From sequence record MZ234035.1: DNA of 64,000 bases. One strand, written 5' to 3'. Numbering within the stretch: position 1 is the stretch's first letter; every line of letters begins with the position of its first letter. The notes under the pieces were generated by a model. The model made no database searches. It was not told where the DNA came from and saw nothing but the letters and a program-made list of their open reading frames with translations. The position numbers and the translations under genes are program-made. Source of the DNA: Escherichia phage vB_EcoM-G3F7. Positions 8,486-26,754 of this stretch are shown here, in pieces.

Positions 8486-9232
8486 ATGAAACTGTCTAAT
8501 AATCAAATTCGTAAAATTAAACGTCGTTTAGAGCACACTCAGGCATCTGCAAAAAGACGTTCTAAAGATTTTAACTTAGACTTCAATTACATTAAGAATA
8601 TTTTAGATCAAAAAGTTTGTGCCTATTCAGGAGAACCTTTTGATAATCGTATTGAAGGAGAGAAATTATCATTAGAACGTTTTGATAATAACATTGGATA
8701 CATTAAAGGGAATGTTATTGCAGTAAAGAAAAAGTATAATACATTTCGTTCTGATTATACTTTAGAAGAGTTGATTGAAAAACGGGATTTATTTGCTTTG
8801 CGAATTGGTCGTTCATCTGCGAAAAAAGTTCATAAACTAAATTTAGATGAAAAGAAATGGGCTAAAATCAAAAAGACTTATAATCAAATTAAAGCTATAC
8901 AGAAAAAGCGTGAAAATCGAATTGAACACATTTCTCAGCTTTCTAAATCAAAACAGACCTCTGACATTAAGCTAAGAATTATAGCACTTAAAGCTCGTAT
9001 TGATGGTTCTCGCATAGCAGAAGGCGCTGAAGTTGTTAAACTGAACGTTCTTCTTAAAGGCTCGGATTGGAAAATTGTGAAAAAGTTGTCAGAAGCAGAA
9101 ATGCAATATGATGTGTGTGATAAAATTATTCAAGGTGTAGAGCGGTATCAAAACTTGTCTTTTATTGATAAACTTAAACTGAAAAGAGGATACCCGCTAA
9201 ATTGTTCAATTTTTAAACTTATCCGAGGATAA
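8486..9232 (+). CDS. srd: Srd-like protein (sigma decoy), assigned by size and synteny
   Basis: 248 aa between modA and dda as in T4; no motif independently recognised. Confidence 0.55.
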   Translation: MKLSNNQIRKIKRRLEHTQASAKRRSKDFNLDFNYIKNILDQKVCAYSGEPFDNRIEGEKLSLERFDNNIGYIKGNVIAVKKKYNTFRSDYTLEELIEKRDLFALRIGRSSAKKVHKLNLDEKKWAKIKKTYNQIKAIQKKRENRIEHISQLSKSKQTSDIKLRIIALKARIDGSRIAEGAEVVKLNVLLKGSDWKIVKKLSEAEMQYDVCDKIIQGVERYQNLSFIDKLKLKRGYPLNCSIFKLIRG

Positions 9233-9233
9233 T

Positions 9234-9545
9234 ATGGTTTATGTATATGCGATAGTTTACCGAGACAAAGACGGATTTACGGCGCCAGTTCCACTTGATG
9301 AACATCGTCCTGCTGTGTTTTTTGAAAGAGAGATTGCTGATAGAGTTTTTACTACTCTCAAAGACCAATATAAACTAGCTTTAGGTATGGGAATTCCAAG
9401 ACTAGTTGAGACTCCACGCAAGTTTTGGTTTAATAAAATAGAAGTTAAACATGTTAAGCCTGATGTAGATACACAAAGATTATATCAACGAATTCTAGAT
9501 ACTGGGCGTATTGTTAGTATTCCAATTGCAGGGACTTTCCGATGA
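9234..9545 (+). CDS. Hypothetical protein (dda.1 position)
   Basis: 103 aa, ATG start, immediately upstream of dda. Confidence 0.5.
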   Translation: MVYVYAIVYRDKDGFTAPVPLDEHRPAVFFEREIADRVFTTLKDQYKLALGMGIPRLVETPRKFWFNKIEVKHVKPDVDTQRLYQRILDTGRIVSIPIAGTFR

Positions 9546-10861
9546 CATTTGATGATTTGACAGAAGGCCAGAAAAATGCCTTTAACATCGTTATGAGGGC
9601 TATTAAAGAAAAGAAACATCATGTAACTATTAATGGACCTGCTGGTACTGGTAAGACTACTCTTACTAAGTTCATCATTGAAGCTTTAATATCTACGGGT
9701 GAAACTGGTATTATTTTAGCAGCTCCTACACATGCAGCTAAAAAGATTCTTTCAAAACTGTCGGGGAAAGAAGCGAGTACTATTCACAGTATTCTTAAAA
9801 TTAACCCAGTTACGTATGAAGAAAACGTTCTTTTTGAACAGAAGGAAGTACCAGATTTAGCTAAATGCAGGGTATTAATCTGCGACGAAGCGTCAATGTA
9901 TGATAGAAAGCTATTTAAAATTCTGCTTTCAACTATTCCACCTTGGTGTACTATAATTGGAATAGGTGATAATAAGCAAATTAGACCTGTTGATCCAGGA
10001 GAAAATACTGCTTATATCAGTCCATTCTTTACACATAAAGATTTTTATCAGTGTGAACTCACTGAAGTTAAACGCAGTAATGCTCCTATTATTGATGTAG
10101 CTACTGACGTTCGTAACGGTAAGTGGATTTATGATAAAGTTGTTGACGGGCATGGAGTACGTGGATTTACTGGTGATACCGCTTTACGCGATTTTATGGT
10201 AAATTATTTTTCAATCGTCAAATCTCTAGATGATTTGTTTGAAAATCGCGTAATGGCATTTACGAATAAATCTGTTGACAAGTTAAATAGCATTATTCGT
10301 AAAAAGATTTTTGAAACTGATAAAGATTTTATTGTCGGTGAAATTATTGTAATGCAGGAACCATTAATTAAAACATATAAAATTGATGGAAAGCCTGTGT
10401 CAGAAATTATTTTTAATAACGGACAATTAGTTCGTATTATAGAAGCAGAGTATACATCAACATTTGTTAAAGCTCGTGGTGTTTCTGGAGAATACTTAAT
10501 TCGTCATTGGGATTTAACAGTAGAAACTTACGGCGATGATGAATATTATCGTGAAAAGATTAAAATAATTTCATCTGATGAAGAGCTATATAAGTTTAAC
10601 CTATTTTTAGGTAAAACAGCAGAAACTTATAAAAACTGGAATAAGGGTGGAAAAGCTCCATGGAGTGATTTTTGGGATGCTAAATCACAGTTTAGTAAAG
10701 TGAAAGCACTTCCTGCATCAACATTCCATAAAGCGCAGGGTATGTCTGTAGACCGTGCTTTCATCTATACACCTTGTATTCATTATGCAGATGCTGAATT
10801 GGCTCAACAACTTCTTTATGTTGGTGTTACCCGTGGTCGTTATGACGTATTTTATGTGTGA
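9542..10861 (+). CDS. dda: Dda 5'-3' DNA helicase (SF1B)
   Basis: 439 aa; Walker A GPAGTGKTT; matches T4 Dda as recalled. Confidence 0.93.
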   Translation: MTFDDLTEGQKNAFNIVMRAIKEKKHHVTINGPAGTGKTTLTKFIIEALISTGETGIILAAPTHAAKKILSKLSGKEASTIHSILKINPVTYEENVLFEQKEVPDLAKCRVLICDEASMYDRKLFKILLSTIPPWCTIIGIGDNKQIRPVDPGENTAYISPFFTHKDFYQCELTEVKRSNAPIIDVATDVRNGKWIYDKVVDGHGVRGFTGDTALRDFMVNYFSIVKSLDDLFENRVMAFTNKSVDKLNSIIRKKIFETDKDFIVGEIIVMQEPLIKTYKIDGKPVSEIIFNNGQLVRIIEAEYTSTFVKARGVSGEYLIRHWDLTVETYGDDEYYREKIKIISSDEELYKFNLFLGKTAETYKNWNKGGKAPWSDFWDAKSQFSKVKALPASTFHKAQGMSVDRAFIYTPCIHYADAELAQQLLYVGVTRGRYDVFYV

Positions 10862-10867
10862 GGATAT

Positions 10868-11128
10868 ATGATTAACATCAATTCAAAATATTTAAATCGT
10901 CTAATAGATTGTATAAGGAAGCATACTAATAAGCAAGATAATCTCGATGTTATGGTAACAGGAGCTGAGCTCCTTCATAAGCTTTATCTTATAAGTGATA
11001 CTATATTAGCAATTAAACGAATTGAAAAACAATCATATCACAGTAATACAGATACGGTAATTACACTAGATGAAAGTGTCTGTAAATTACTAATTAAATT
11101 TGAGGAAGCTATTCGTGGAAATAACTAA
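10868..11128 (+). CDS. Hypothetical small protein (86 aa)
   Basis: ATG with GAGGA SD. Confidence 0.45.
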   Translation: MININSKYLNRLIDCIRKHTNKQDNLDVMVTGAELLHKLYLISDTILAIKRIEKQSYHSNTDTVITLDESVCKLLIKFEEAIRGNN

Positions 11129-11360
11129 AGACCAGTTTTATCTGCTTCAAGATAAAGTGAGCGAAATTTATGAAATAGCTTATAGTAAAAATCGTGAAAC
11201 TGTAAAAATTGAATCTAGTAAGTTGATGCTTCAATTAGAAGAAATTGAACGAGATTTAATTGCGTTAGAATTCTTTTGTGGTGAAGTGAAAACTGTCACA
11301 ATCAGTGATTATGTTTTAGGTGAAATTAGCTATCTTTATAAGGCGATTATTAATGATTGA
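11100..11360 (+). CDS. Hypothetical small protein; paralog of next ORF; start uncertain (TTG 11100 or GTG 11115)
   Basis: Track ORF begins with TTG; shares L.EE...D......V.I.DY.LG.I..L pattern with 11353..11595. Confidence 0.4.
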   Translation: MRKLFVEITKDQFYLLQDKVSEIYEIAYSKNRETVKIESSKLMLQLEEIERDLIALEFFCGEVKTVTISDYVLGEISYLYKAIIND

Positions 11361-11595
11361 ATTAAGTTGGTGTCAGTTTAAATCTCTTATGACAAATGTT
11401 AAAGCTGTCATTGAGAAAAATTCTGGTCCTGAAAATATTACTATTCGCGAAAAAGCTTTAAAGATAATATACAGTCTTGAAGAGATGCAAAAAGATATTG
11501 AATCTATGGCAAAATTTATTGATGAACCTATTAATAAAGTTTATATTCAAGACTATACTGTAGGCCAAATTCGCGATTTAGCGAGGAAAATTTAA
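11353..11595 (+). CDS. Hypothetical small protein; paralog of previous ORF
   Basis: Track ORF 11320..11595; ATG at 11353 overlaps upstream stop; similarity to preceding ORF. Confidence 0.45.
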   Translation: MIELSWCQFKSLMTNVKAVIEKNSGPENITIREKALKIIYSLEEMQKDIESMAKFIDEPINKVYIQDYTVGQIRDLARKI

Positions 11596-12278
11596 TGTTT
11601 GATTTTATTATAGATTTTGAAACAATGGGAAGTGGTGAAAAAGCAGCTGTTATTGATTTAGCTGTAATTGCTTTTGACCCTAACCCAGAAGTAGTTGAAA
11701 CATTTGATGAATTAGTTTCACGCGGCATTAAAATCAAATTTGATTTAAAAAGCCAAAAAGGACATCGTCTTTTTACTAAAAGCACTATCGAATGGTGGAA
11801 AAATCAGTCTCCTGAAGCTCGAAAAAATATTGCACCGTCCGATGAAGATGTAAGCACTATCGACGGTATTGCGAAATTTAATGATTACATCAATGCACAT
11901 AATATCGATCCTTGGAAATCTCAAGGCTGGTGCCGTGGAATGTCGTTTGATTTTCCAATTTTAGTCGATCTCATTCGTGATATTCAACGTCTTAATGGTG
12001 TTTCTGAGAATGAACTTGACACATTTAAGTTAGAACCATGTAAATTCTGGAATCAGCGTGATATTCGTACCAGAATTGAAGCACTTCTGCTTGTTCGTGA
12101 TATGACCACGTGTCCTCTTCCAAAAGGAACTTTAGATGGATTCGTTGCGCATGATTCTATTCATGACTGCGCGAAAGACATCCTGATGATGAAGTACGCT
12201 TTGCGATATGCTATGGGTCTTGAAGATGCTCCATCAGAGGAAGATTGCGATCCTCTATCTCTTCCAACAAAACGATAA
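11595..12278 (+). CDS. dexA: Exonuclease A DexA (DnaQ-like 3'-5' exonuclease)
   Basis: 227 aa MFDFIIDFETMG...; matches T4 DexA as recalled. Confidence 0.88.
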   Translation: MFDFIIDFETMGSGEKAAVIDLAVIAFDPNPEVVETFDELVSRGIKIKFDLKSQKGHRLFTKSTIEWWKNQSPEARKNIAPSDEDVSTIDGIAKFNDYINAHNIDPWKSQGWCRGMSFDFPILVDLIRDIQRLNGVSENELDTFKLEPCKFWNQRDIRTRIEALLLVRDMTTCPLPKGTLDGFVAHDSIHDCAKDILMMKYALRYAMGLEDAPSEEDCDPLSLPTKR

Positions 12279-12844: not shown

Positions 12845-13390
12845 ATGAAATTTAATTATAATCCTGAATACACACCGAATCCGGCAGCTAAACTGATTGA
12901 TTTTGACGTTGTAAGTACTTATGTATGCCCTGTTAAACCACTGGAAATTAAGGAACCTACTATGACTACCGCTATTGAAATCGGCAAAACCTACAAACTG
13001 GTTGAACCTAAAATTAAAACTAATGCCTTGATTTCTGGTCATAAAACTCTGACTGATGTTTTTGGCGAAGGCGAATTTATTGTTGAAGAATTTGCCAAAA
13101 GTGAGTGGTTTGACAAATCTTACGTCATCCACGGTCGCCGGTTAGATAATAACAAAATAAAGAAAAACCTGGTTTATGAAGATGAGTTCATCCTGTTCCA
13201 AGAAGTTGAAGAACAAGACCCTACAGACCTGTTGTGTGCTGCTGTGTCTATCCGTCGTCCTTTTGATAATCCTATCTGTGGTTGGGTAACAGACCAGTGG
13301 ATTGAAGATGGTGTTGAGCTTCTGAACGTTGTCCATGCAGGAGATTTTAGTGTAGTACCTCGTAGTGCGGTGGTAGCTATTTTGAATTAA
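12845..13390 (+). CDS. MotB-paralog protein (motB.1 position)
   Basis: 181 aa; C-terminal CGWVTDQWIEDGVELLNVVHAGDFSVVP is clearly paralogous to CGYITDQWVEDGVKLYNVVFLGTYKVIP in the next ORF. Confidence 0.5.
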   Translation: MKFNYNPEYTPNPAAKLIDFDVVSTYVCPVKPLEIKEPTMTTAIEIGKTYKLVEPKIKTNALISGHKTLTDVFGEGEFIVEEFAKSEWFDKSYVIHGRRLDNNKIKKNLVYEDEFILFQEVEEQDPTDLLCAAVSIRRPFDNPICGWVTDQWIEDGVELLNVVHAGDFSVVPRSAVVAILN

Positions 13391-13466: not shown

Positions 13467-13955
13467 ATGATTATTAATATTGGTGAAATTGCTCGTGTAT
13501 CTGATAAATCCCGTTCTAAAGCAGCAGGAAAATTGGTCGAAGTTGTAAGCATTCAGCTTAAACACGGTGTTAAAGATGAAGATTCTGAAGTAAAAGTACG
13601 TATCATTGCTAAAGATGGAATGTCTAAGCCCCAGTTTGGTTATGTTCGATGGAAATTTCTTGAGCCTGCGTTTTTGAAAGCTGTTCCTGCTAAAGGAATT
13701 GAAACGATTGATACTTCGCATGTAGGTGTAGACTTTAAGTGGAAACTCGGTCAAGCTATCAAGTTCATTGCTCCTTGTGAATTTAAATTTATCAAAGATG
13801 ATGGAAAGGCTGTTTATACTCGCGCTATGTGTGGATACATTACCGATCAATGGGTAGAAGATGGCGTTAAGTTGTACAACGTGGTATTTTTAGGAACATA
13901 TAAAGTCATTCCTGAAAGTTGGATTAAACACTACAGCAATGCTCTCTATGCATAA
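13467..13955 (+). CDS. motB: MotB-like protein, assigned by size (162 aa) and synteny
   Basis: 162 aa; position between dexA and gene 39 as T4 motB; paralog of upstream ORF. Confidence 0.45.
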   Translation: MIINIGEIARVSDKSRSKAAGKLVEVVSIQLKHGVKDEDSEVKVRIIAKDGMSKPQFGYVRWKFLEPAFLKAVPAKGIETIDTSHVGVDFKWKLGQAIKFIAPCEFKFIKDDGKAVYTRAMCGYITDQWVEDGVKLYNVVFLGTYKVIPESWIKHYSNALYA

Positions 13956-25778: not shown

Positions 25779-26414
25779 ATGTCTAAAGTAACTTACATCA
25801 TCAAAGCTTCTAACGATATTCTGAATGAAAAAACTGCTGCGATTTTAATTACCATTGCTAAGAAAGATTTCATTACAGCTGCAGAAGTTCGTGAGGTGCA
25901 TCCAGATTTAGGCAATGCAGTAGTTAATAGTAATATTGGGGTATTGATTAAAAAAGGCCTGGTGGAGAAATCTGGTGATGGATTAATCATTACTGGTGAA
26001 GCTCAGGATATTATTTCAAATGCAGCAACTTTATACGCACAGGAAAACGCTCCGGAACTGCTGAAAAAACGAGCAACTCGTAAAGCTCGCGAAATTACTT
26101 CTGATATGGAAGAAGATAAAGACTTCATGTTAAAACTTTTAGATGAAAATGGATTTGTTCTTAAAAAGGTTGAAACTTACCGCAGTAACTATCTCGCTAT
26201 TTTAGAAAAACGCACTCACGGAATTCGTAATTTTGAAATTAACAACAATGGAAATATGCGAATTTTTGGATACAAAATGATGGAACATCATATTCAGAAA
26301 TTTACTGACATCGGAATGTCATGTAAAATCGCTAAAAACGGTAATGTGTATCTTGACATTAAACGTTCGGCAGAAAACATTGAAGCTGTAATCACTGTAG
26401 CATCTGAACTGTGA
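25779..26414 (+). CDS. motA: MotA, activator of middle transcription
   Basis: 211 aa MSKVTYIIKASNDILNEKTAAILITIAKKDFITAAEVREVHPDLGNAVV...; matches T4 MotA as recalled. Confidence 0.9.
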   Translation: MSKVTYIIKASNDILNEKTAAILITIAKKDFITAAEVREVHPDLGNAVVNSNIGVLIKKGLVEKSGDGLIITGEAQDIISNAATLYAQENAPELLKKRATRKAREITSDMEEDKDFMLKLLDENGFVLKKVETYRSNYLAILEKRTHGIRNFEINNNGNMRIFGYKMMEHHIQKFTDIGMSCKIAKNGNVYLDIKRSAENIEAVITVASEL

Positions 26415-26424
26415 GGAATAAATA

Positions 26425-26754
26425 ATGAACAAGTTAGAAATTGTCAATGAACTTCGTCGTTGTGTAGAACCTACTCAAGAGGGTTGGGACATCTGGTACC
26501 ATGGAGCTTATCTTGGAACTATCGTAAAGATTAAGACTGGCAAATACATGATTATTCGTGAAAGTAAAGATGCTCCAGTAGGTATTCGCAATAATTTCAT
26601 GGCAGCTATAAGTTCCTTTATGGATTCAGCTTACGAAATTTACCTTGCTGATTATAAAGAATTCCATGAATCTCAACCAGTTATTCGCTCAATTGGTGTT
26701 AACAAAGCTCAACAGAAAACTTTATGGCAACGTATTAAAGGATGGTTTAAATGA
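26425..26754 (+). CDS. Hypothetical protein (109 aa)
   Basis: Track ORF, ATG after GAGGA. Confidence 0.5.
   Translation: MNKLEIVNELRRCVEPTQEGWDIWYHGAYLGTIVKIKTGKYMIIRESKDAPVGIRNNFMAAISSFMDSAYEIYLADYKEFHESQPVIRSIGVNKAQQKTLWQRIKGWFK

Follow-up and report, generated by a model that had tools for sequence, protein, structure and literature searches.

Between the genes for the Dda helicase and the DexA exonuclease, T4-like phages may carry small genes of roughly 80 codons, which raises the question of whether these genes are related to one another and what their products do. We addressed this question in a 64,000-nucleotide stretch of Escherichia phage vB_EcoM-G3F7 (MZ234035.1), hereafter the window, which is a Tequatrovirus genome segment whose + strand equals the minus strand of T4. 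Over bases 10800-11700 it shows 100% identity to WilhelmHis (Bas35) and to several further phages, and this region is matched by 498 phage records (Tequatrovirus). The genes srd (8486-9232), dda.1 (9234-9545) and dda are followed by three small ORFs, here termed A, B and C, and then by dexA (Table 1). With a probability of about 0.7, we consider that positions 10868-11595 represent a tandem array of A, B (dexA.2) and C (dexA.1), comprising one Tevenvirinae-specific family of single-domain proteins of ~80 residues.

Table 1. Features of the dda-dexA interval, with positions counted from the first base of the window.
Feature	Position	Strand	Remarks
dda helicase gene	9542..10861	+	upstream edge of slot
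ORF A	10868..11128	+	86 aa; annotated CDS in WilhelmHis; own family phrog_4967
Shine-Dalgarno GAGGAAG for dexA.2	11102..11108	+	within last codons of ORF A
ORF B, dexA.2 ortholog	11115..11360	+	81 aa; GTG start; acidic, pI 4.5
ORF C, dexA.1 ortholog	11353..11595	+	80 aa; ATG start; pI 6.25
dexA 3'-5' exonuclease gene	11595..12278	+	downstream edge of slot

The three ORFs were found on the same strand and tightly packed between dda and dexA, an arrangement likewise seen in eight other genera. The ATG of ORF A lies 6 nt past the dda stop, which is overlapped by its ribosome-binding site (RBS), GAGGA; A and B share 14 nt; the ATG of C overlaps the stop of B as ATGATTGA; and the stop of C overlaps the dexA start as TAATG. 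No convincing internal promoters or terminators were identified in the array. The initial annotation had begun the first of a pair of ORFs with TTG at 11100 and, although both ORFs exist, this start merely reflects the mechanical choice of the longest reading frame; the GTG at 11115 is the start given in GenBank and in T4, is served by the RBS GAGGAAG, and is kept in 5 phages. Among Tequatroviruses all three ORFs are under purifying selection, with pN/pS of 0.02-0.36 overall (A, 0.05-0.36; B, 0.02-0.36; C, 0.12-0.36). Judged by this pattern of substitution, A, B and C are all real genes.

While the location between dda and dexA had been given correctly, the pair had passed unrecognized as the named T4 genes dexA.2 and dexA.1. 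ORF B is the dexA.2 ortholog, 96% identical to T4 DexA.2 (NP_049631, P39418), and ORF C the dexA.1 ortholog, ~90% identical to T4 DexA.1 (NP_049630, P32285). Both match a single protein family profile, phrog_1700, with B occupying positions 1-80 (E=7.8e-50) and C positions 80-159 (E=6.3e-42). Furthermore, every listed homolog of B and C carries a precomputed assignment to the Pfam domain PF26837 (PF26837.1); the link to this family is made through these precomputed homolog domains, the model being absent from the Pfam copy that was scanned. ORF A shows no phrog_1700 match, and its homologs carry no Pfam domain.

Database entries for these genes proved a poor guide to their nature. The labels “exonuclease”, “Phage exonuclease” and “dextranase” are widespread on dexA.1 and dexA.2 orthologs, RefSeq naming T4 NP_049631 itself a dextranase. 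We reject these identities: the proteins are 80 aa long, and no nuclease or glycoside-hydrolase domain was found by Pfam, NCBIfam, PDB sequence or fold comparison. The names are annotation errors spread from the gene symbols “dexA.1” and “dexA.2”. Also identified were a T6 homolog labelled “tail sheath stabilizer”, and a 44-aa “truncated DexA.2” in Shigella phage sb1 (1159-1293 of the examined locus), where an intact DNA sequence runs collinear with that of the window and the gene caller missed the GTG, beginning instead at an internal Met38. The sb1 “truncated dexA.2” entries therefore look like a gene-calling artefact, as does, probably, phrog_28922 as a whole. A further 81-aa look-alike of DexA.2 from a protein library shows N, K, N and I throughout where DexA.2 has D, E, G and V (every G read as A), and looks like the product of bisulfite-converted or deaminated reads rather than a natural variant.

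Based on several comparisons, B and C are true tandem paralogs at the level of their sequences. Their Smith-Waterman score of 84 compares with a shuffle mean of 27.7 (sd 5.1), giving z=11, and was reached by 0/5000 shuffles, so that the similarity first proposed for 11100..11360 and 11353..11595 lies far above its shuffled controls. Composition-adjusted BLASTP (E=7e-8) aligned the two end to end with one gap and 22/79 identities (28%), and hhalign of the two ortholog sets gave E=3.7e-5 over 74 columns. Common to both are LEE...D (B 41-47, C 42-48) and, after an interval of 13-14 residues, V.I.DY..G.I..L (B 61-74, C 63-76). Compared with these, the pattern reported earlier, L.EE...D......V.I.DY.LG.I..L, is slightly off in its spacing, and the “L” before G is V in ORF C. 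The B/C relationship is itself already known, being encoded in Pfam PF26837 and phrog_1700, and annotators of phages VR5 and VR26 had earlier noted likeness to DexA.1/DexA.2.

The position of ORF A is less direct. The initial annotation had ascribed a weaker similarity to this ORF (10868..11128), which fails in pairwise comparison, where A yields z-scores of 3.2 and 2.2 with local alignments out of register, but holds through phrog_5263 and a hidden Markov model (HMM) built without A. Likewise, hhalign of the A ortholog set against B and against C found nothing, word-indexed homolog searches for A, B and C returned only homologs of >=71% identity (nearly all >84%), and a B+C profile run against 1.84 billion representatives retrieved no A-type proteins among its 10 matches, which comprised close relatives or fragments of B, C or the Dhakavirus gene, bar one marginal 352-aa protein. 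This metagenomic protein (B+C profile E=9e-4) contains at least six tandem repeats of ~45 aa with the motif ISEETKQSAIADYIAGELT...ICEKYNI, resembling I-S-D-Y-V-A-G-E-I; the match probably reflects the chance agreement of a short motif with a repeat that is helix-turn-helix-like.

The bridging profile is phrog_5263, of 77 positions, which aligns in one register with all three ORFs, at 2e-5 for A, 4e-8 for B and 0.05 for C. The HMM comprised eight members, namely B, C and the slot proteins (those encoded between dda and dexA) of VR5, VR26, CC31, TU02, CHI14 and TG1. It scored A at 20.1 bits, aligning A residues 1-82 with model positions 1-80, a score reached by 0/20,000 residue shuffles of A (maximum 14.4). 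In a ranking of the window's 551 six-frame ORFs, A came third, behind C and B (E=1.8e-5; next ORF 0.016). That next ORF, at 26425-26754 (109 aa, directly 3' of motA at 25779-26414), was the best match outside the family; we judged its 10.5 bits to be noise and do not count it as a member. Slot ORFs of other phages designated TG1_b, Phi1_c and Kimel_a scored no better than their own shuffles with the same model.

Structure prediction provided a second line of comparison. The AF2 model of ORF B (pLDDT 93.8, pTM 0.81) comprises E2-4, H5-24, H28-55, E60-62 and H65-79, and that of ORF A (pLDDT 84.1) follows the same order, with E2-5, H6-21, H26-52, E64-67 and H69-83; for A the input alignment comprised five sequences, and of the five AF2 models produced for it two had a poor pLDDT, of 62.9 and 49.2. 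Both are thus predicted to be single domains of ~80 residues, modelled as a three-helix bundle capped by a two-stranded sheet in the order beta-alpha-alpha-beta-alpha. The fold of C is read through B, with which it aligns end to end, and the B model matches its aligned half of a model of a B-C fusion from phage ime09. Foldseek searches of BFVD with the A and B models returned overlapping neighbours (CC31 E5DI27, fHe-Yen9-01, Cronus and A0A7D5FXR1), and those of A include DexA.2 itself (TM 0.69/0.73). Further BFVD neighbours belong to phages of Acinetobacter and Aeromonas and hint that the family of predicted folds extends more widely. Against the PDB, all 85 Foldseek matches had E>1 (best E=1.2), and no solved structure was alike. 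A ribbon-helix-helix (RHH) fold was considered for the N-terminal strand and two helices and rejected: RHH domains span ~45 aa and dimerise via the N-terminal strand, whereas the helices here are 20 and 28 residues long with an extra strand and helix, and no RHH was found in Pfam or among the Foldseek PDB matches listed.

We place A in the family on three independent grounds, namely the phrog_5263 bridge, the A-free HMM, and the predicted topology and Foldseek neighbours, despite the failed pairwise tests; its membership is thus based on a 20-bit profile score together with predicted structures. A is a third, older and much diverged member, rather than a recent duplicate of B or C; it no longer has the DY..G motif and contains an added loop of 6 residues. 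That the likeness instead reflects convergence or composition among short amphipathic helical proteins encoded by AT-rich DNA, with A an unrelated ORF, appears very improbable. Spurious alignments can arise between helical proteins that are alike in length, and the weak, out-of-register pairwise scores and the empty hhalign result for A are what such an origin would produce. However, the adjusted BLASTP and shuffle statistics for B and C, their collinearity from end to end and their common Pfam and PHROG families argue against it, as do, for A, composition-keeping shuffles that stop well short of the observed score, the failure of the other phages' slot ORFs to exceed shuffle level or, for the rest, 2 bits, and a predicted fold with the same element order and neighbours as B. 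Scarcely credible is the reading of B and C as one gene, expressed by fusion or programmed frameshift, for which the single 480-nt CDS of ime09 (“dexA.1”, 159 aa; 722-1201 of the examined locus) spanning both equivalents and the 160-position phrog_1700 covering B and then C might be cited, but which we reject, given that ime09 owes its fusion to the loss of 1 nt at a site 8 nt ahead of the C start, a deletion absent from the window and T4, that ~160-aa proteins occur in none of 102 clusters of B/C homologs, that T4 proteomics lists DexA.1 and DexA.2 separately (PMC9697503 supplement), and that single-copy orthologs have ~80 aa. The ime09 deletion may be a real mutation or a sequencing error, and a fusion of this type probably explains the 160 positions of phrog_1700 as an artefact.

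Reading the dda-dexA interval in one representative per genus revealed variation in copy number. In RB69 (Mosigvirus), dda is followed directly by dexA. Single copies were identified in VR5 (Dhakavirus), VR26 (Gaprivervirus), CC31 (Karamvirus), TU02 (Jiaodavirus) and CHI14 (Winklervirus), and two copies in T4 (Tequatrovirus) and in Erwinia phage IT22 (Roskildevirus), both IT22 copies being recognised by the HMM. TG1 (Tegunavirus) has two ORFs, only one of which is clearly a member, and the window has three copies. The slot ORFs of Krischvirus Phi1, Slopekvirus phT4A and Acinetobacter phage Kimel were unrecognisable by sequence (own-shuffle level or <2 bits). The single-copy proteins (VR5 gp014, VR26_015, CC31p016 and the TU02 and CHI14 gene products) occupy the same slot, have 77-84 aa, and carry the family motifs, namely the N-terminal strand, A-I...F-T-G and I-S-D-Y-V-A-G-x-I; they probably correspond to phrog_5263. 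They differ from the window in presenting one copy rather than three, with identities of 12-39%, and in being uniformly acidic. The scores of VR26 and CC31 lie nearer to B, and A is equally distant from all of the single-copy proteins.

A neighbour-joining tree of these proteins groups VR5 with C (97% bootstrap) and this pair with B (94.5%), leaving A outside with no supported partner. Given that VR5 groups with C, and that pair with B, the B/C duplication predates the split between Tequatrovirus and Dhakavirus. Dhakavirus has then either lost its B copy or carries a B/C recombinant: the N-terminal part of the VR5 protein is B-like (9/19 identities, versus 6/20 for C), and its C-terminal third is C-like (16/28, versus 8/28 for B).

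ORF A is present at >80% identity in 308 Tequatrovirus records, compared with the 498 that match the region. In the window/T4 alignment, T4 keeps only the last ~33 nt of A (KFEEAIRGNN*). Since this remnant holds the dexA.2 RBS and part of a conserved C-terminal helix, a deletion in T4 is favoured over an insertion in the window, and T4 appears, from this alignment, to have lost A by a clean deletion. In RB14, A is frameshifted by an 8-bp tandem duplication (AAATATTT AAATATTT) at about 795-815 of the examined RB14 locus, equivalent to window positions of about 10886-10900, and the annotated “RB14ncORF015c” (58 aa) restarts at Met29. A is thus decaying in some lineages, such as RB14, and deleted in T4, and the copy number of the slot varies by duplication and loss.

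A broader and rather doubtful proposal is that the dda-dexA slot of Straboviridae constitutes a conserved “cassette site” for one extremely fast-diverging family of a ~80-residue binding-protein fold, which would repeatedly duplicate in tandem to yield paralog-specific modulators of DexA/Dda or of host defence nucleases, ORF A being an unrecognised member. The examples considered were A, B and C in the window, the IT22 pair, and the BFVD look-alikes in Acinetobacter and Aeromonas phages, which are known by structure only.

Duplication of small genes was also observed elsewhere in this part of the genome. Just downstream of dexA, a second tandem pair in the window consists of an ORF at 12845-13390 (181 aa) and MotB at 13467-13955 (162 aa), which have in common a C-terminal module, CGW/YxTDQWxEDGVxLxNVV, with 51% identity over 35 aa (BLASTP E=1e-12); annotators of RB69 and ime09 already name such ORFs “similar to motB”. 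In the Phi1 slot, ORF010 and ORF009.1 (1898-2065 and 2067-2243 of the examined locus) are paralogs (phmmer E=2e-6) with the C-terminus CINKMxEHFTKRGF.

Available data from T4 provide a context for the possible function of these proteins. T4 DexA.1 and DexA.2 are detected as proteins and belong to an “early RNA / middle protein” class (PMC9697503 supplement), and dda.1-dda-dexA.2-dexA.1 are carried on one polycistronic transcript, for which one start site was detected (bioRxiv 10.1101/2024.04.04.588121). Together with the paralogy of B and C and the more distant relationship of A, this supports the original suggestion that the dda-dexA interval contains a family of small early proteins that arose by tandem duplication. 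A genome-wide dCas13d knockdown screen scored dexA.1 and dexA.2 as non-fit genes, along with dexA and dda themselves (PMC11879866 supplement). CBASS Cap2 was also found to conjugate two T4 proteins to cGAS, one of them being DexA.2, at Lys5 (PMC10097602). The phage literature found naming these genes assigns no function to DexA.1 or DexA.2, and Pfam, NCBIfam, PADLOC and PDB sequence searches gave nothing meaningful on function by homology.

We tentatively propose that A, B and C may act as non-enzymatic binding modules, given that they are too small for enzymes, belong to no known catalytic family, and derive from an ancestral form that was acidic. The most conserved features are the N-terminal strand, the A-I...F-T-G loop past helix 2, and the I-S-D-Y-x-x-G segment leading to helix 3, and from the order of predicted secondary-structure elements these positions should lie near one end of the bundle. 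This conserved end, comprising the loop between helix 2 and strand 2 and the I-x-D-Y-x-x-G segment where strand 2 passes into helix 3, might serve as the binding surface. The single-copy forms have pI values of 4.2-4.8, compared with 4.5 for B, 6.25 for C and 7.8 for A. Such divergence in charge after duplication, together with the loss of a motif in A, could lead each copy to bind a different partner, and fits partner divergence rather than simple dosage. The partner could be a host protein, which would imply that the copies serve in counter-defence or in some accessory capacity, or else DexA or Dda, with which they are co-translated. Binding modules of this sort would fit with genes that are dispensable in laboratory E. 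coli.

With regard to host partners, one possible though doubtful reading is that these are counter-defence or host-takeover factors, each paralog inhibiting its own host target, for example a nuclease or immune sensor, with turnover of copy number and sequence driven by an arms race. In favour are copy numbers of 0-3 among close relatives, the ongoing deletion and frameshifting of A, and between-genus identities as low as 12-39%. The proteins are also small, mostly acidic and expressed early or in the middle of infection, T4 can dispense with them on laboratory E. coli, and DexA.2 is conjugated to cGAS. On the other hand, PADLOC, a library of defence-system proteins, produced no match; copies within Tequatrovirus are >84% identical with pN/pS well below 1, which does not indicate fast positive selection; and the conjugation of DexA.2 to cGAS may reflect mere abundance.

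We consider it unlikely that the proteins are instead accessory subunits of DexA or Dda, binding and stabilising or modulating the adjacent exonuclease or helicase by analogy with theta/HOT, although several features of the locus point in this direction. A family member lies between dda and dexA in the examined representative of each of eight Tevenvirinae genera, in every locus with a member the last copy's stop overlaps the dexA start or directly adjoins it, the T4 genes are co-transcribed with dda, and DexA is a DnaQ-like exonuclease beside which A, B and C would be helical bundles of ~80 residues. However, start/stop overlap is common across T4 genomes, so that coupling with dexA constitutes weak evidence; dexA and dda are themselves non-fit in the knockdown screen; and three diverged paralogs are not obviously needed by one enzyme. 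Moreover, because RB69 keeps dda and dexA without any member, the family is not an obligatory DexA/Dda cofactor.

The natural variants with 0, 1, 2 and 3 copies (for example Bas35 with three and T4 with two) could be used to seek the function of a family that is kept beside dexA in most of the T-even-like genera examined. What is new here is modest: the membership of A, which brings ~300 orphan ORFs annotated “hypothetical protein” (phrog_4967) into the DexA.1/DexA.2 family; the variation of the slot between 0 and 3 copies with identifiable losses; and the recognition of several database entries as artefacts. The value of the finding lies mostly in annotation tidying, and it would not surprise a T4 specialist.

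Among known systems, theta (HolE) and HOT of phage P1 are small helical proteins of ~76-83 aa that bind a DnaQ-type proofreading 3'-5' exonuclease. A, B and C are similarly small and predicted to be helical, and are encoded beside and coupled with the DnaQ-like DexA, so that any correspondence would be one of functional analogy. They differ in showing no sequence or fold match to theta/HOT, and RB69 encodes DexA without such a partner gene. Membership of a theta/HOT-like fold was rejected, there being no theta/HOT chain among the top 50 Foldseek PDB matches listed and 0/85 matches at E<1. The 181-aa ORF/MotB pair and Phi1 ORF010/ORF009.1 exhibit the same local duplication of small genes of the early or middle class in the non-essential dda/dexA/motB region, whereas the protein families involved are unrelated to DexA.1/DexA.2. 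The closest counterparts are DexA.2 and DexA.1 of T4 itself, which agree with B and C in length, in their placement between dda and dexA and in how their starts and stops overlap, with no material difference; what sets the window apart from T4 is ORF A, which lies outside PF26837 and phrog_1700 and is absent from T4.
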